From the NCBI GenBank assembly GCA_963664705.1, contig OY761556.1:3264001-3328000 (forward strand): 64,000 nt of DNA, in the 5' to 3' direction. Below the pieces are notes generated by a model, which saw nothing but the letters and a program-made list of their open reading frames with translations, was not told the origin of the DNA and ran no database searches. A program made the translations under genes and the position numbers. This stretch comes from Acidobacteriota bacterium (lineage in GTDB: Bacteria > Acidobacteriota > UBA6911). This document shows positions 12,722-53,792 of this stretch, piece by piece (the first letter of the stretch is position 1; every line of letters starts with the position of its first letter).

Positions 12722-12930
12722 TGCAGCACTGGCCCCACTGAGAGCGCCGCTGTCCCGCCTAATGCACACTATTTGTTCCGAGCCCTGCAACGCGAGTGGA
12801 GCAACAGGCCCGGAGGGCCGAAAGATCGTAGACATAATGGAGTGATCGGTCTCTAGCATGTAATATCGTGGGTTACAGCTGAAGTCGTGGTGACGAAGCT
12901 GCAGAGCCATAAAACATGAGGAGACCGATC

Positions 12931-14025
12931 ATGGCAGATTGTATCACTTGGGTAGGGATGGATGATTCAGCAAAAAAGATAAACGTCGCAATTTTTCGCG
13001 GGCAGGAAAGTAACCCTCGAGAAGAACTTGTTGTATCAAACGACAGTACGGGGCTGGGTCGGTTAGCGAAAAAGCTAAGGGCATTTGAAGATGATGTACG
13101 GTGCGTCTACGAAGCGGGCGTTAATGGATACTATTTGCAGCGCTATTTGGCCAAACATGGGATTTCTTGTGAGGTTGCGGCCCCTTCGTTGACTCCGAGA
13201 CGAGCGGGGAAAAAAGTAAAAACGGATAAGCTGGATGCGAAAGCCTTGGGCAAATTGTACCGAGCGGGAGAACTAACATGTATTGTGATCCCGCAAAAAG
13301 AACAGGAAAGTCTGCGAGATCTGGTGCGTGCGCGAGAAGACGCATTGGAAGACCAGCAGCGAGCACGGCATCGATTAGCACGGTTTCTGATGCGACGTGG
13401 ATTGAAATATCCGCAGGGCAAGAACTGGTCGCTTGGGCACCTAAAGTGGATTAAGAGCCTTGTGTTTGAGGATGATGGGGATCAAACAGTACTGGAGGAA
13501 TATCGACAGGCGCTTGAGCAACAGACGGAGCGGTTGAAAACATTCCAGGGAAAAATCGAGGAAGTTGCAAAACAGCCGAACTATCAAAAGCGAGTCAGCT
13601 ATTTGATGGCGCTAAAAGGCGTTCAGGTTCTGACGGCGATGACGATTATCGCAGAAGCGCTCGATTTAAGACGGTTCGTTGATGCGCCTTCGTTTATGGC
13701 CGCTATTGGGGTGGTGCCTTCGGAAAGCAGCTCAGGTGAACTTGAAAGACGGGGAAGGATAACCAAAACGGGAAACAGCCACCTACGTAGGGTGCTGATC
13801 GAAAGCGCCTGGCACTACCGTCATTCTTCAGTAGCTGGCAAAACTCTCAAGAAACGACGAGAGTGTTTGCCGGCAGAAGTTATCGAGATTGCACAACGTT
13901 GCGATAAGCGATTGAATCAAAAATTCCGACGCATGCTCAACCGAGGGAAAGAAAGACAAAAGATCGCGGTTGCGGTAAGTCGAGAATTGGCAGGATTTAT
14001 CTGGGCTATCGGTCGTGTTGCATGA
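12931..14025 (+). CDS. IS110-family DEDD transposase/recombinase
   Basis: GMD, YEAG and KTDKLDA (DEDD) plus C-terminal PSESSSG..RGRITKTGN with catalytic Ser; RBS GAGGAG before ATG 12931. Confidence 0.95.
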   Translation: MADCITWVGMDDSAKKINVAIFRGQESNPREELVVSNDSTGLGRLAKKLRAFEDDVRCVYEAGVNGYYLQRYLAKHGISCEVAAPSLTPRRAGKKVKTDKLDAKALGKLYRAGELTCIVIPQKEQESLRDLVRAREDALEDQQRARHRLARFLMRRGLKYPQGKNWSLGHLKWIKSLVFEDDGDQTVLEEYRQALEQQTERLKTFQGKIEEVAKQPNYQKRVSYLMALKGVQVLTAMTIIAEALDLRRFVDAPSFMAAIGVVPSESSSGELERRGRITKTGNSHLRRVLIESAWHYRHSSVAGKTLKKRRECLPAEVIEIAQRCDKRLNQKFRRMLNRGKERQKIAVAVSRELAGFIWAIGRVA

Positions 14026-14097
14026 CATAAGGCACCAGCTCTTGCAGCTATTTTGTTCTTCAATGGATTAATAACGGAAACATTCGGTTAGTGAACG

Positions 14098-14285
14098 GAA
14101 CAGGAGATCGAGTTCCAGGCTTCGAAAGGAGAAACCTCGACCTGGCTATGTTGGTATGGGAAACCAGAATCCACGGAAGTAGAGTGAGGCCGCTCCCGAT
14201 GAATCAGTTGTCATGCGTGCTTATCGACCCGCGAATATCAGATTGATTATCGTCGCTGTTGCCAACTCGATCCCCTGTTCTTTTT
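14098..14285 (+). ncRNA. Putative bridge/seek RNA of the IS110/IS1111 element
   Basis: Closing stem 14098-14114 with 14264-14280 (16/17), then a T-run; internal segments match the REP target (CCTGGCTA, GGAAGTAG) and the donor junction (ATATCAG). Confidence 0.7.
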
Positions 14286-14501
14286 ACTGGCTGATTTATT
14301 TATGAACCGAAGAAAACCAAAATGAACGAACAAGGAACGGATTGATTGTACTTGACCGATCACTCCATATCAGCCGGGGGTGAAGCGCAGCGAACCCCCG
14401 GTAGAGATTAGCGCGCGAAAGAGCCCGGGTAGGGCGACAGAAACGGTTAAATGAACCCCTCTCCAATGTTCAACCTTAGGTTATGTGGAGGAACGAAAAT
14501 G

Positions 14502-14650
14502 TCTTTCGCCCCCTCCGGGCTCTTTTTACTTTCATGCTATCCGGGGGTTCGCAAAAAGCGCTCACCCCCGGCTACTTTCTGACCGCCCCGCCGGGACTGA
14601 GATGCAACGCGCTTCCAGCTTCCTCGGGCAAATTATATGCAGCATTAGTC
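14502..14650 (-). repeat. REP-like element copy B (inverted partner of copy A)
   Basis: TCTTTCGCCCC..GGGCTC...CCGGGGGTTCGC..GCGCTCACCCCCGGCTACTTTCTGA; near-colinear with 37067-37215. Confidence 0.85.
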
Positions 14651-14818: not shown

Positions 14819-17800
14819 TTAGCCGAAATCGGCGCGCTTATTTTTCACAGCGTCGAGATCCAGGTTCCCACCCAGAAGGTCGGCTTCCAGATCCGGTTCA
14901 CCGCCCTCCGCTTCAGCCGGTTCCATCGGAACCATCTGCTCGGTGAGCTTGATATTGTGGTAATACTCCATTCCCGTACCGGCGGGAATGAGGCGTCCCA
15001 TGATCACATTCTCCTTCAGACCCCGCAGGTAATCGACCTTTCCGCTGATGGCGGCTTCGGTCAGAACGCGGGTGGTTTCCTGGAAGGATGCGGCTGAAAT
15101 AAAGCTGTCGGTCGAGAGCGAAGCCTTCGTGATGCCGAGCAGTAGTGGCCGGCCTTTGGCAGGCGCTCCACCGGCAGCCTCAACGCGTTCGTTCTCTTCG
15201 TAGAATCGGAACTTATCCACCTGTTCTTCGAGCAGAAATTCCGTATCGCCGACTTCCTCAACCTTGATCCAGCGCATCATCTGGCGAACGATCACCTCGA
15301 TGTGCTTATCGTTAATGTTGACGCCCTGCAGACGATACACCTCCTGGATTTCGTTCACCAGGTAGCTCTGCAGTTCTTTTTCGCCCAGTACACGCAGAAT
15401 ATCGTGCGGGTTGCGCGGACCATCCATCAAGGCCTCACCGGCGCGGACATACTCACCTTCCTGCACGTTAATATGCACGCCGCGAGGAAGCAGGTATTCC
15501 TTGATCATGCCGCTTTCGTGATGAACTTCGATCTTCCGCTGACCGCGCACCAACCCAGCGTATTTGACCACGCCGTCGATTTCGGTGATAACCGCGGTTT
15601 CCTTCGGCTTCCGGGCTTCGAACAACTCGACGATGCGCGGCAAACCTCCGGTAATATCCTTGGTTTTACGCGTTTCGCGAGGAATCTTTGCCATGATGCT
15701 TCCGGGGAACACCTCTTCGCCGTTGTCGACCCAGAGATGCGCCTTGGATGGCAACAGGTAGCTCTTGACCACCTTGCCCTTGTCGTTTTTGATGCCGATC
15801 TGCGGCTGGTATTTCTCGTCCGGAGACTCCGTGATGACCTGGCGCACGAGACCCGTGTTTTCGTCACGTTCCTCTTTGACCGTAATGCCATCATGGATAT
15901 CCTTGAACACGATCGTTCCGCCGAACTCGGTCAGAATCGCGAAGGAATACGGATCCCATTCAACGAGAATCTGGCCGGGTTTGATCTTCTGCCCTTCCTT
16001 GACCTTCAGAATGGCGCCGTATGCTACGGAGTAGCGTTCCTTCTCGCGTCCCGCCTCGTCGGCAATGATCAGCGTACCGTTGCGGTTCATCACAACCAGG
16101 TTGCCGTCTCGGTTGGTGACATGCTGGATGTTGAGGAACTTGACGATACCTTCATTCTTGGACTCTTCGGTCGACTGCTCATGCGTTCTGCTCGCCGTGC
16201 CGCCGATGTGGAAGGTTCTCATCGTCAACTGCGTACCGGGCTCACCAATGGATTGCGCCGCGATAACGCCGGTGGCCTCGCCAAGGTCCACCAGTTGTCC
16301 GGTGGCCAGGTTGCGACCATAGCATTTAATGCAAACGCCGCGCTTCGCTTTGCAGGTCAACACCGAACGGATCTTGACCCGTTCGATGCCAGCCGCCTGA
16401 ATATCGGCAGCCAGGGTTTCCGTAATTTCATCATTGATTCCGCAGATTGTCTCGCCGGTGAGCGGATCCTTGATATTTTCAAGCGATACGCGTCCCACGA
16501 TACGGTCACGGAGAGGCTCGATGATCTCGCCGCCCTCAATGATCGAAGTTACATAGATTCCATCCAATGTGCTGCAATCCTGGGTGGAAATAATGACGTC
16601 CTGCGCCACATCAACAAGCCTTCGGGTCAGGTATCCGGAATCGGCCGTCTTGAGCGCCGTATCCGCCAACCCCTTGCGGGCGCCGTGCGTTGAAATGAAG
16701 TACTGCAACACCGTCAACCCCTCGCGGAAATTGGCGGTGATCGGCGTTTCAATAATTTCGCCTGACGGCTTGGCCATCAAACCGCGCATGCCGGCCAGCT
16801 GACGAATCTGCTGTTTGCTGCCGCGGGCGCCCGAATCGGCCATGATGTAGATCGGGTTGAATTCATACCCGCCCTCATCCTGCTGGGCCATCTTGCGGAA
16901 CATTTCATCCGATACCTTTTCCGTAACATCCGACCAGATATCGATGATCTTGTTGTAGCGCTCGCCGTCGGTAATGGCGCCGTCCTGGTACTGCTTTTCG
17001 ACCTCGATCACGCTTGAACGCGCATCGTCAACAAGGTCGGCCTTGCTTTCGGGCACGACCAGGTCATCGATGCCAATCGAGATCCCTGCCTTGGTCGCAT
17101 GCAGGAAACCGAGGTCCTTCAGGTCGTCCAGCATTTTGACGGTAGTGTCGAGACCGAACTGCAGGTAGCAGTAGTTCACGAGCTGCTGCAGACCTTTTTT
17201 CTTCAGCAGACCGTTGACGAATGGCATCCCCTTGGGAAGAATGGAATTCAGGACAAGGCGGCCAATCGTGGTGTTAACGAACTCGTTCTTCACATCGCGT
17301 ACTTCCGCGCGCATCACGGCCTGATCGTCATACTGCGTCGTCAGATCCATCAACGGGCCGGTGTAGCGATACCGGATCGGAGTTAGCCGTTCCACCATGC
17401 TGTTGTCGAGAGCAAACATCGCTTCATCGAACGTACCGAACGCACGGCCTTCTCCCTTGGTCCCCTTCTTCGCCTTCGTCAGGTAGTAGCAACCCAACAC
17501 GATATCCTGGCTGGGGATGGCGATCGGCTGGCCATTCGCCGGCGAGAGAATATTGTTGCTGCTCAGCATGAGCACCGATGCTTCGATCTGGGCTTCCGGC
17601 GAAAGCGGAATGTGTACGGCCATCTGGTCGCCGTCGAAATCGGCGTTGAACGCGGCGCAGACCAGGGGTGGGATCTTGATGGCTTTCCCTTCAACCAGCA
17701 CCGGCTCAAAAGCCTGGATACCGAGTCTGTGCAGCGTCGGAGCGCGGTTCAACAATACCGGATGATCCTTGATAACCTCTTCGAGGATATCCCACACCAC

Positions 17801-19018
17801 CGATTCCTGCCGCTCGACCATTTCCTTGGCGCCCTTGATGGTCGCAGCATGTCCTTCCTTCTCCAGCCGGTTATAGATGAACGGCTTGAAGAGCTCGAGA
17901 GCCATTTTCTTGGGCAGACCGCATTGATGCAGCTTCAGTTCGGGACCGACTACGATCACCGAACGGCCGGAATAGTCGACGCGTTTTCCGAGGAGGTTCT
18001 GACGGAATCGTCCGGACTTCCCTTTGAGCGTGTCGCTGAGGGATTTCAACGGGCGGTTATTGGCACCACGAAGCACGCGGCCGCGCCGTCCGTTGTCGAA
18101 CATCGCATCCACCGCTTCCTGCAGCATGCGCTTCTCGTTGCGGATGATGACTTCGGGTGCACGCAACTCCATCAGCTTTTTCAACCGGTTGTTCCGGTTG
18201 ATGACGCGCCGATAGAGGTCGTTCAGATCCGATGTGGCAAATCGGCCGCCATCCAGTGGGACCAGGGGGCGCAGTTCGGGCGGGATGACCGGGATGACGT
18301 CCAGAATCATCCATTCCGGCTTATTCCCGGATTTGCGGAAAGCATCCACGACTTTCAGCCGTTTGGCATACTTGATTCTCTTCAGTTGGGACGTTTCCGT
18401 CTTCATGGCGGCGCGCAGTTCATCCGCGATCTCTTCAATATCGACTCTCTTCAAGAGTTCCTTGATCGCTTCCGCACCCATCATCGCCCTGAATTTGCCG
18501 GGGAATTCCTGGATCAATGCCCGGTATTTTTCCTCATTCAGGAGTTCGCCCGATTTGACCGGCGCTTCGCCGGAATCAATCACGACATAGGCTTCAAAAT
18601 AGAGCACTCGTTCCAGATCCCTGAGGCTGATATCGAGTAGATGGCCGATCCGGCTGGGCAATCCTTTGAAGAACCAGACATGCGAACAAGGGGATGCGAG
18701 CTCAATATGGCCGAGTCTTTCACGGCGCACCTTCGAAAGGGTGACTTCAACGCCGCACTTGTCGCATACCACGCCCCGGTACTTCATGCGCTTGTACTTG
18801 CCGCACAAGCATTCCCAGTCTGTAACCGGGCCAAAGATCCGAGCACAGAAGAGTCCGTCTTTTTCCGGTTTGAAAGTACGATAGTTGATCGTTTCGGGTT
18901 TGGTCACTTCACCGCGCGACCATGCCCGTATCTTTTCCGGAGACGCAAGGCTGATTCGAATGCTGTCGAAATCAGTGCTCAAATCCGATTTTTCCATTAC
19001 ATCTTTAAAACTTCTCAA
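14819..19018 (-). CDS. rpoC: DNA-directed RNA polymerase beta' subunit
   Basis: [11 protein letters not shown] catalytic motif, zinc finger CLCGKY..CDKC, 1399 aa. Confidence 0.99.
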
Positions 19019-19098
19019 TTGGCCCCCCCAATTTTTGTATGAGGTTTCGCTTTTAATCTCTTCGTCTCTAGTTCAACGTCCCTTGGTTTAACCAAATA

Positions 19099-19161
19099 AT
19101 TGACGATTGCGGATTTACGATTGACGATTGTTTCAAATCGTCAACCGCCAATCGCAAATCA

Positions 19162-19163
<2 letters not shown>
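19099..19163. repeat. Heptamer-built hairpin between rpoB and rpoC
   Basis: ATTGACG ATTGCGG ATTTACG ATTGACG ... AATCGTC AACCGCC AATCGCA AATCATC. Confidence 0.8.
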
Positions 19164-23465
<4,302 letters not shown>

Positions 23466-26914: not shown

Positions 26915-26991
26915 TGGCAGGCCAGGAGGGACTCGAACCCCCAACATGCGGTTTTGGAGACCGCCGCTCTGCCAATTAGAGCTACTGGCCT
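26915..26991 (-). tRNA. tRNA-Trp (CCA)
   Basis: Cloverleaf AGGCCAG...CTGGCCT-GCCA; anticodon loop CT-CCA-AA; TTCGA T-loop. Confidence 0.96.
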
Positions 26992-27028
26992 GTGTACAAC
27001 CCTCGTAACGGAAACCAGCCCCTCACGC

Positions 27029-27178
27029 CTAACGCGTTTCCTTGTGCGGCGTATGGGCACGGCACCGATTACAGAACTTCTTGAACTCCAGCCGCTCCGT
27101 CGTCGTCTTCTTATTCTTCGTCGTCGTATAGTTGCGGCTTTTGCACTTCGTGCATTCCAAATTAATAATGTCTCGCAT
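27029..27178 (-). CDS. rpmG: 50S ribosomal protein L33, zinc-binding C+ type (49 aa; absent from the ORF track)
   Basis: Manual translation [49 protein letters not shown]. Confidence 0.97.
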
Positions 27179-27190
27179 GGCTGTCCCGGA

Positions 27191-28378
<1,188 letters not shown>

Positions 28379-28472
28379 ACTAGATTCTCCTGGCTTCTGC
28401 TCCGGGTCGTTTTAATTTTTTTAAATATTAATAACTCTTTTCAATTCCTATCAAGCTATCCGGCAAATTCGA

Positions 28473-28548
<76 letters not shown>

Positions 28549-28559
28549 AGATCCTCAAA

Positions 28560-28641
28560 TTGTTTTGCCAGCCAAAACAAAACTACGACAGGCAATCCTT
28601 CTTTAAGTTTTGGCTTGCCAGCCGGAGCCTTTGGCATAGGC
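28560..28641 (-). repeat. tRNA-anchored palindromic repeat after the tRNA-Gly CCA
   Basis: GCCTATGCCAAAGGCTCCGGCTGGCAAGCC... begins at the first base after CCA; homologous to 42978-43001. Confidence 0.7.
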
Positions 28642-28717
28642 TGGAGCGGGAGACGGGACTCGAACCCGCGACCAATAGCTTGGAAGGCTATGACTCTGCC
28701 AACTGAGTTACTCCCGC
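28642..28717 (-). tRNA. tRNA-Gly (TCC)
   Basis: GCGGGAG...CTCCCGC-TCCA; anticodon TCC. Confidence 0.96.
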
Positions 28718-28748
28718 TTAATAAATGCTCCGCCTTTTTTGACGGACA

Positions 28749-28791
28749 GTTTTTCAGACTCCGGCTGGCCGGCCGGAGCTTCAAGAAAAAC
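28749..28791 (-). repeat. tRNA-anchored palindromic repeat after the tRNA-Tyr CCA
   Basis: GTTTTTCTTGAAGCTCCGGCCGGCCAGCCGGAGTCTGAAAAAC hairpin; core nearly identical to the post-tmRNA hairpin. Confidence 0.75.
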
Positions 28792-28879
28792 TGGTGGAGA
28801 GGGGAGGATTCGAACCTCCGTAGTACCTAAGTACGCTGGGTTTACAGCCCAGTGCCATTAACCGCTCGACCACCTCTCC
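28792..28879 (-). tRNA. tRNA-Tyr (GTA)
   Basis: GGAGAGG...CCTCTCC-ACCA; anticodon GTA; long variable arm. Confidence 0.96.
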
Positions 28880-29111
28880 AAAGATCTTCTCGCCTTCATT
28901 CTGCTTCGACAGGCTTGCCCGCCCAAGCTTCAGCAAAGGCTATTCAACATCTGCAAGGCATGGGAACTTTCTGCAATGCTTTGGTCATCCGCCAAAGTGG
29001 AGTCCAGGGAGCTTACAGGTGAGCCGGCCTAACCCTTCTGCCTCCGTCCGGTTAAGCCTCCGAACCGGGTTCCGCAAATCCCAAATCCAGCTTCTTTTAC
29101 GGCCCTTATAC

Positions 29112-29187
29112 TGGAGCTGGCGAGAGGATTTGAACCCCCGACCCGCTGATTACAAATCAGCTGCTCTACCGACTGAGCTACGCCAGC
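29112..29187 (-). tRNA. tRNA-Thr (TGT)
   Basis: GCTGGCG...CGCCAGC-TCCA; anticodon TGT. Confidence 0.96.
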
Positions 29188-36835: not shown

Positions 36836-36925
36836 CAGGCCCGGAGGGCCGAAAGCAAGTAGCCAGGGGTGAGCGCAGCGAACCCCTGGATTGGATTAGA
36901 CCAGTAACAAGCCCTCCTAAGGCGC
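36836..36925 (+). repeat. REP-like element copy C (intact equivalent of the IS target)
   Basis: CAGGCCCGGAGGGCCGAAAGCAAGTAGCCAGGGGTGAGCGCAGCGAACCCCTGG. Confidence 0.85.
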
Positions 36926-37066
36926 TCGATGCAAATCGGGAATCATAACTATATTTGTTCCAAGTATTTAACTAAACAGAGAAAAAGCAAAAAATAAATC
37001 GAGTTCCCTTGATGTTTGGAACACCACCGGTGGGCGGGCTGCTGAAGGGGCGGCAGAAGGCGCCGA

Positions 37067-37342
37067 TCTTTCGCCCTTTCAGGGCTCTTTCTCGCGCCCA
37101 TCTTTACCAGGGGTTCGCTGCGCTCACCCCTGGCTACTTTCTGATCGCCCCTGCCGGGGCTGGTATGCATTGCGATTCCAAGTTCCCTGGGCAAATAGTA
37201 TGCGGCATCAGCCGGATGGCGGTGCTTCCAGCGCAAACTTCCCCCAAAAAGCCGGGGCTGGATTGGTTCGACCCAACGCAGGAATGATTGTCAACCTTTC
37301 TGATCGCCCCTGCCGGGGCTGATATGTGCGGCATTAGCCGGA
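37067..37342 (-). repeat. REP-like element copy D (37067-37215) and partial copy E (37296-37342)
   Basis: CCAGGGGTTCGCTGCGCTCACCCCTGGCTACTTTCTGATCGCCCCTGCCGGGGCT; the last part recurs at 37296. Confidence 0.85.
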
Positions 37343-42627: not shown

Positions 42628-42977
42628 GGGGGTGAACTGGATTCGACGGTAATCATGAGACAATTGAGGCATGTCCGAGTACCTGGATCTCGGAATAATC
42701 TCTAGGAAAACAATTAATCGCCAACGAACAGTTGCCGATGGCTGCCTAATAGGTGGCCCGTCACCCCATGCTCCGCCCATGGTGTGGGAGCGTGACGACC
42801 GCAGTGGGATGCGCCAGGTTCAAACTTGTAGACCTGGCTAAGATTACAAGTTAGCGAGGAAGCGTCCCTGTGAGTTCGTACGACTCGATCGCGAAATCTG
42901 TAACGGACTCAATAAACATGTAGTCTCAATTGATCGAAGGTTGTCGGACGCGGGTTCGATTCCCGCCACCTCCACCA
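42628..42977 (+). ncRNA. ssrA: tmRNA; tag reading frame 42720-42749 encodes ANEQLPMAA*
   Basis: 5' GGGGGTGAACTGGATTCGAC; 3' GACGCGGGTTCGATTCCCGCCACCTCCACCA; tag ends AA-TAA-TAG. Confidence 0.96.
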
Positions 42978-53717: not shown

Positions 53718-53792
53718 GGCGCTATCGTCTAGGGGTCAGGACGGGTGGTTCTCAGCCATCAAACCAGGGTTCGATTCCCTGTAGCGCTACCA
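53718..53792 (+). tRNA. tRNA-Glu (CTC)
   Basis: GGCGCTA...TAGCGCT-ACCA; anticodon loop TT-CTC-AG. Confidence 0.93.

Follow-up and report, generated by a model that had tools for sequence, protein, structure and literature searches.

Homolog covariation and genomic target choice of an IS1111-type element that is very likely a bridge-RNA recombinase directed at the REP family of its Acidobacteriota host

In the IS1111 elements described by Siddiquee et al. (2024; PMC11187229), the seekRNA lies 3' of the transposase gene, its top-strand match comes first, and one element, ISPa11, targets REP sequences; the same source gives the rule of 7-bp and 3-bp extensions for IS1111 ends. Durrant et al. (2024; PMC11208160) predicted a bridge RNA in 93% of IS1111 elements and drew six bridge RNAs, among them the predicted one of ISCARN28, an element on the same transposase branch as the one analyzed here, and in the supplement of that paper the row labelled ISCARN28 is a cluster representative. 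Handshake guides are described in PMC11208158, the IS621 design file has the first donor guide covering the first core base only, and for ISPpu9 recombination at an AG within REP sequences is reported (PMC12288879). Related literature includes PMC13604230, PMC3733652 and bioRxiv 10.1101/2025.10.25.684509, and predicted bridge RNAs now number 32,190 (bioRxiv 10.64898/2026.10.21.760802). With tens of thousands of such predictions, the basic claim made here will not surprise a specialist. The initial annotation of this DNA was correct about an AG core and a right-guide-before-left-guide order, while the novelty that it implied does not hold, since earlier publications on IS1111 seekRNAs, ISPa11, IS621 and ISPpu9 already contain the order, the AG core and REP targeting. 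We conclude that the element is very likely a further example of the bridge-RNA kind described in 2024. Its value is that of a clean natural test set: 11 insertions in one single-contig genome, together with some 55 homologs whose ends are known, allow the four guides and the probable handshake bases of an IS1111-type element to be mapped, and make it testable whether IS110 and IS1111 elements differ in mechanism, a caution raised in PMC11187229, or in orientation only.

The window, by which we mean the whole stretch of 64,000 nucleotides that was analyzed, contains at positions 12830-14373 (+ strand) an IS110-family element with IS1111-type ends and a 3' non-coding end. Its limits follow from 11 full copies with identical ends and different flanks, and the AG core is included at either end (12830-12831 and 14372-14373), with one of the two copies being part of the element. 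On the left, the AG and the right-donor half ACATA (12832-12836, +) make up the 7-bp extension typical of IS1111 ends, followed by a 15-bp subterminal inverted repeat (12837-12851, +) whose perfect partner (14354-14368, +) is in turn followed by the 3-bp right extension ATC (14369-14371). A subterminal repeat with 7-bp left and 3-bp right extensions, as found here, is what defines ends of the IS1111 group, and homologs carry 10-15-bp versions of the repeat. Two homologous loci, L058 and L077, have left ends that depart from the 7-bp extension, one resembling target sequence and one having 5 extra bases, and these are possibly rearranged junctions. The 11 full copies in the 6.9-Mb, single-contig host genome are 98.9-100% identical; AG stands at both junctions and the RNA core sequence is the same in every one of them, and one of the 11 has a transposase with a stop codon. 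Neither stand-alone copies of the RNA nor two-ended miniature elements were found in the genome. There is in addition one left-end fragment of 92 bp (genome 4,126,127-4,126,219), which lies inside a REP and continues straight into the hairpin, and which is probably a deletion remnant. In the computed circle junction a -35 box, TTGACC (14352-14357, +), lies 17 bp from CATAAT, and the two form a predicted junction promoter; TTGAC is recognizable at the corresponding place in the homolog alignment. No circle junction was present among the joints listed for four sequencing runs, whose contigs lose rare forms, and joints in the DNA runs that lacked the element were set aside because other empty REPs could give them.

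The transposase (12931-14025, +, in a frame open from 12916) is an IS110-family DEDD recombinase of 364 amino acids with the domains PF01548 and PF02371, and it scores 206.6 bits with NF033542 against a cut-off of 140. The residues D11, E61, D99, D102 and S268 were assigned by alignment to IS621, in an alignment that includes ISCro4. Among 26 sequences D11, E61 and D102 are invariant and D99 is nearly so, whereas S268, which aligns with the IS621 serine, is absent from the invariant list. Overall similarity to the IS621 protein is weak (E 3e-6). Homologs of the transposase are mostly of the same length, in contrast to the 330-350 amino acids given for the IS1111 elements in PMC11187229. Its close relatives among named records are from Acidobacteriota, and no named element among plasmid records exceeds 44% identity. 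Full-length identity is 38% to ISSso6 and 36% to ISEc45, and motifs in common with ISCARN28 were recognized by eye; judged by these sequence comparisons, ISSso6, ISEc45 and ISCARN28 are the nearest named relatives and the transposase belongs with them. An ISSso6 copy has a 14-bp subterminal repeat and, in its 3' end, the same donor-guide heptamer as the element studied here, but the target of the ISCARN28/ISSso6/ISEc45 branch differs. In the matrix of PMC11187229 these relatives stand apart from IS1111A, ISEc11 and ISPa11, and we found no experimental study of the branch in the literature.

A long non-coding region lies downstream of the transposase gene. The initial annotation had noted this 3' end, to which it gave a length of 345 bp; it extends from 14026 to 14371 or 14373 and hence measures 346-348 bp. 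The closing stem of the RNA domain noted there was recovered, with 16 pairs. The stretch of 188 nucleotides folds with -64.7 kcal/mol (z -3.7; 0 of 200 shuffles equally good), and the consensus of 40 cores gives a predicted bridge RNA (14098-14280, +) in which the outer stem closes a junction with a target-binding and a donor-binding hairpin, each having an internal loop with a guide on either side. In this consensus 98.4% of the cells at 47 pairs are paired, against 35-46% in slid controls, a comparison that favors the structure in that it was derived from the same alignment, and two-sided, compensatory changes occur at 15 of the 47 pairs. Rfam has no family for the RNA and returned only weak matches to Acido-Lenti-1, on the flanking REP halves, none of them at the gathering score. 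The contigs of one RNA run (4% word share) contain an 83-nt piece of a relative and pieces of REP, which says nothing about transcription. A different explanation of this region would be that the structure is a transcription terminator or an mRNA-stabilizing element behind the transposase gene, with guide matches that arose by chance. The length of the closing stem, the T-run that follows it in this copy and the shortness of the guides would all be in keeping with this, but the T-run, which had been noted at the outset, is not conserved and is not supported as a terminator: five Ts follow the stem in 1 of 40 aligned cores, that of this element, and four or more in 6 of 40, and a terminator scan made no call at the site of the stem and T-run.

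Within the RNA we assign four guides. The first target guide (14141-14147, +) is the complement of the core and 5 bases to its right, and read on the - strand it is identical to the left target plus the CT core. It falls within the segment CCTGGCTA, which is present at 14141-14148 as reported, and the REP sequence that this segment was said to recognize, TAGCCAGG, is likewise present at 36860-36867, with its reverse complement at 37129-37136. The second target guide (14178-14182, +) reproduces the core AG and the 3 bases to its left. The segment previously proposed as the left guide, GGAAGTAG, is indeed located at 14175-14182, and a left guide is real, although it comprises only about 3 nucleotides plus the core and not the 8 that had been proposed, since G14175 sits in a stem and positions -4 and -5 hardly co-vary; 14176-14177 are at most weakly used. 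The first donor guide, TGTC (14209-14212, +), is the complement of the core G and the ACA of the left end, and corresponds to the right-donor guide that was at first regarded as only weakly visible near 14209, while the second, ATATCAG (14235-14241, +), repeats the sequence of the right end as far as the core (14367-14373). The match to the top strand is accordingly 5' of that to the bottom strand. When the core was shuffled 20,000 times with its dinucleotides preserved, the right-guide match recurred in 0.045% of the shuffles, the left match of 6 nt in 2.4% and the donor match in 0.76%, and all three together in none; the strings were chosen post hoc, so that the comparison with homologs is the stronger test.

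That comparison began from 70 loci outside the host genome. The close set has 53 rows including this element, with identity above 55% and no less than 250 nt of the 3' end. Before counting, two duplicates (L002 and L020), a fragment (L022), rows that lacked the flank in question and cores identical to others were removed, leaving 39 of 48 rows for the right target, 37 of 43 for the left target and 40 of 49 for the left donor, and each of the 188 RNA columns was scored against every flank position. The predicted column ranked first for target positions +3, +4, -1, -2, -3 and -4 and for donor positions -1 and -2. Column 14142 complements target +4 in 39/39 rows (13.8 expected) and 14143 complements +3 in 36/39; on the left, 14180 equals -1 and 14179 equals -2 in 33/37 rows each, 14178 equals -3 in 29/37, and -4 is weak (15/37). 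On the donor side 14238 equals -2 in 33/40 and 14239 equals -1 in 38/40, the left-donor total being 110/120 compared with a shuffled mean of 90.8 and a maximum of 102. Positions +1, +2 and +5 and donor -3 hardly vary and are uninformative, and -5 and -6 have no partner among the 188 columns. Among the close homologs the right-donor guide does not vary, since the left end itself is constant in them. A FastTree tree of the transposase (42 rows) requires no fewer than 14 changes at 14142. In phylogenetically independent pairs, guide and target change together in 7/7 for +4 (p 0.016), 6.5/7 for +3 and 5.3/6 for -1; the same test is not significant for -2 (5.1/6, median p 0.06) or -3 (3/6, p 0.25), and for donor -2 only 2 such pairs exist. 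These tree-based pairs make natural retargeting evident among the homologs.

The distant set contains 33 loci at 33-49% identity, 18 with a recognizable repeat pair and 15 without, of which 16 were used; L077, with its ambiguous left end, and L106, the same element as L090, were excluded. In these distant homologs (39-47% identity) the targets are quite different and the guide rule is kept. The summed longest match to the right target is 76 (shuffled mean 28.7, maximum 49), and at left-target positions -3 to -1 there are 44/48 matches versus 18.7, while -5 and -4 are not kept. The right-donor guide gives 39/48 matches, taking the better of two registers, against a shuffled mean of 29.3, with ACG, ATA and TC donors represented. 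It should be noted that the distant rows fall into few clades, so that the permutation values overstate the donor results, and that donor-guide covariation rests on few independent changes. A left guide of 8 nt was considered and rejected: no column co-varies with -5, and in the distant homologs -4 and -5 together match in 11/32 cases with 7.9 expected (p 0.12). Four distant relatives, L105, L086, L108 and L092, have other targets. L105 is inserted in a short tandem repeat. In L108 and L092 the dinucleotide at one junction differs from that at the other, and in L108 each target guide matches its own junction.

A lack of covariation between guides and flanks in homologs had been named in the initial annotation as a refuting outcome, and all four guides passed this test. 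The terminator or stabilizing-element explanation is rendered extremely improbable by this agreement with DNA outside the element in two independent sets of homologs and by the complementarity at 14142 without a single exception. A second alternative concerns the donor side. It holds that the functional RNA is a processed target-binding hairpin of 80-100 nt, that the protein itself reads the 15-bp repeats and that the donor loop is dispensable. An 82-nt RNA of ISEc11 with target matches alone supported transposition (PMC11187229), the element has long inverted repeats, and its donor guide tolerates mismatches (7/40 at donor -2), all of which speak for this possibility. On the other hand, conservation of the donor hairpin equals that of the target hairpin, and changes in the ends are accompanied by changes in the two donor guides. 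Both observations imply that donor pairing is under selection, and we consider it improbable that the target hairpin suffices. A co-varying donor loop, evident in this element, sets it apart from ISEc11, ISPa11 and ISKpn4, with which it shares subterminal repeats, 7-bp and 3-bp extensions, the 3' non-coding region, a top-strand match that precedes the bottom-strand match and the junction promoter (predicted here).

The bases that follow the guides were considered for a handshake function. The dinucleotide at 14183-14184 (+) in the target loop is the likely handshake, as it tracks the first bases of the left end of the element. Position 14183 equals donor +1 in 14/16 distant homologs, against 3/16 for the control comparison with target +1, in a test that has only two states and one or two independent changes; in 40 close cores it is an invariant, matching A. 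For 14184 and the left end, 13/40 close cores match, 2/40 form a wobble and 25/40 are mismatched. A handshake after the first target guide (14148-14149) is not supported (best kappa 0.18). In the donor loop, the second donor guide is followed by 14242, which is A in 40/40 close cores and matches the element's own donor, a setting whose equivalent is avoided in the distant homologs (1/16). Matches of the candidate donor-loop handshake to target +1 number 8/16 in the distant homologs, which is not significant (p 0.08). In IS621 the corresponding G166A setting, in which the donor-loop base matches the donor, strongly lowers insertion (PMC11208158). This element differs from IS621 in having its donor-loop base in that inhibiting setting, yet it has spread to 11 sites. 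A14242 may be engaged in a U-A pair in the modeled fold; alternatively, by analogy with an inverse trend in PMC13626964, its setting may favor excision.

Target choice in the host genome follows the guide. T-AG-CC(A/G)GG is present at all 11 insertion sites, and 10 of the 11 copies stand at the foot of a REP hairpin with GT-AG-CC(A/G)GG. Out of 12 guide-predicted positions, six copies match 11, two match 10, one matches 9 and two match 8. The copy in the window is one of the latter two, the worst of the 11, which bears out the earlier remark that its insertion site deviates from the guides, and its G at +3 can wobble with the guide U. A match at all 12 positions is found nowhere in the genome. 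The CCAGG variant of the REP is found at 9/10 occupied and 32/103 empty REPs (Fisher p 0.0004), so that the element picks the minority variant predicted by its guide; the preference at -3 among REPs is not significant (p 0.09). The reading of the element as an RNA-guided recombinase is thus supported both by the covariation of four guides and by its choice of targets.

It may be asked whether the guide is all that is read at the target. In a tentative extension that would complement the bridge-RNA mechanism, and that we regard as possible but unlikely, the guide is needed but does not by itself account for target choice, and the transposase in addition recognizes the hairpin of the REP next to the core. 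Where the right side matches fully and the left at 3 or more positions, 8/8 copies lie in hairpins, compared with 40/80 empty sites of the same match quality (p 0.007), a hairpin lies right of the core in 39/45 close homologs, +6 and +7 are G in 39/39 with no pairing partner in the RNA, and a role of the target hairpin is reported for ISPpu10 (bioRxiv 10.64898/2026.03.19.712850), which this element would then resemble in a possible role of the target stem-loop. However, 34 of the 40 non-hairpin sites are in long ORFs (by a crude mask under which 91% of the genome falls), so that their being empty can be put down to selection against the disruption of genes, and one of the 11 copies occupies a site that is neither a REP nor a hairpin, where the right guide is still matched over T-AG-CCAGG and the next base. 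This copy, L009 (genome 2,938,671-2,940,214), interrupts a small - strand ORF with some 97 codons, the first 45 residues of which have no match in Pfam or NCBIfam, and which may resemble a bacterial HigB/RelE-type toxin-antitoxin gene.

Based on these data, we propose that the element very likely works as a bridge-RNA recombinase guided by four short segments in its 3' non-coding end. The predicted RNA would bind the transposase and pair with the end junction of the circular element and with the GT-AG-CCAGG site in a host REP, and recombination would be directed to their common AG. By extension from work on IS621 and IS1111 elements, the element would be excised to a circle, the junction promoter would drive the transposase and the RNA, the transposase would act as a tetramer with composite DEDD/serine sites, and strand exchange would be sequential. 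Specificity would come mainly from positions +1 to +5 and -1 to -3, with rU:dG wobble tolerated.

The geometry would be that of IS621 read on the opposite strand, with CT as the core. In such a reading the first guide of each loop would correspond to the left half plus the core, the donor one with the first core base only, and the second guide would be complementary and be followed by two unpaired bases, the handshake bases. If IS621 geometry applies on the opposite strand, the - strand of the element would be cut and exchanged first. The setting of A14242 speaks against a simple mapping of this kind. Like IS621, the element targets REP sequences and has two loops with four guides and a 2-nt core that reads CT on one strand, and it shares with IS621, as described in PMC11208160, PMC11208158 and PMC13626964, a first donor guide that covers one core base and handshake-like bases after the second target guide. 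Unlike in IS621, the RNA is 3' of the gene, an outer stem closes both hairpins, the inverted repeats are long, the guides are shorter and their polarity relative to the gene is inverted. We go on to suggest, as a wider proposal about which we are evenly divided, that the "reversed" order of IS1111 elements is IS621 geometry with the ends flipped, having an IS621-like handshake, exchange of the - strand first and a donor-loop base that favors excision and balances it with insertion, and that the target, Acido-Lenti-1, is a DNA repeat of the REP type that a Y1 transposase has spread, and to variants of which the guides have been retuned at least 14 times. Neither the strand-flip reading nor an IS1111 handshake was found in the literature searched, which did not cover the ISCARN28 figure, two cited Science papers and bioRxiv supplements.

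The target itself is a REP in which GTAG precedes a palindrome, and it occurs more than 100 times and in inverted pairs, also within the window, with 103 empty GTAG + CC(A/G)GGG hairpins in the genome. The REP interrupted by the element is divided into a left half (12806-12829, +), consisting of a small hairpin and a linker ending in GT, and a right half (14374-14401, +) with the CCGGGG hairpin, the inverted partner REP ending near 14581; at an empty inverted pair (36853-37143) both AG sites match the right guide perfectly. Like ISPa11, then, the element has a REP target, and like ISPpu9 it inserts at an AG beside the inverted repeat in REPs, although ISPpu9 is described as a member of the IS110 group without inverted repeats (PMC12288879). 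Comparison of the REP with the Rfam family Acido-Lenti-1 gave at least 105 matches at E up to 1, with 150 of 1448 candidates scored, and at least 12 above the gathering score among the same 150 of 1448, all 12 being GTAG + hairpin on the opposite strand. Matches in the window are at 12806-12831, 14541-14598 and 36837-36867, and the conserved GGCUA of the family falls on the insertion core. Acido-Lenti-1 was listed as a likely RNA in PMC2864571 and is termed "of unknown function" in bioRxiv 10.64898/2026.10.21.760802. Judging from these sequence matches, it may be a DNA repeat and not an RNA gene, a reading that was not found in the literature searched, bioRxiv supplements not being covered.

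The genome has a single Y1_Tnp gene (148 aa), which lies between two inverted REP copies with GTAG. It is located at L112:1329-1996 (genome 1,439,7xx-1,440,4xx), with flanks arranged as in REP-associated tyrosine transposases, and only the IS200 model scores (55.8 against a cut-off of 55), no RAYT-specific model doing so. Its links to the REP and to a Y1 transposase offer a way to account for Acido-Lenti-1, an Rfam family whose function is still given as unknown. The REP pair to the right of the element (14372-14645) aligns at 71% and 76% identity with the two flanks of the Y1 gene. A ribosome-binding site and an ATG are retained in it, as if it were a Y1 cassette with the ORF deleted, and at least 6 similar spacers occur elsewhere in the genome. 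Elsewhere in the window, rpoC- and rpoB-like ORFs on the - strand, which were named by sequence and adjoin the element, five tRNAs, a tmRNA and another tRNA account for 14819-23465, 26918-29187, 42628-42977 and 53718-53789, and the end of the rpoB-like frame suggests a frameshift near 19400.
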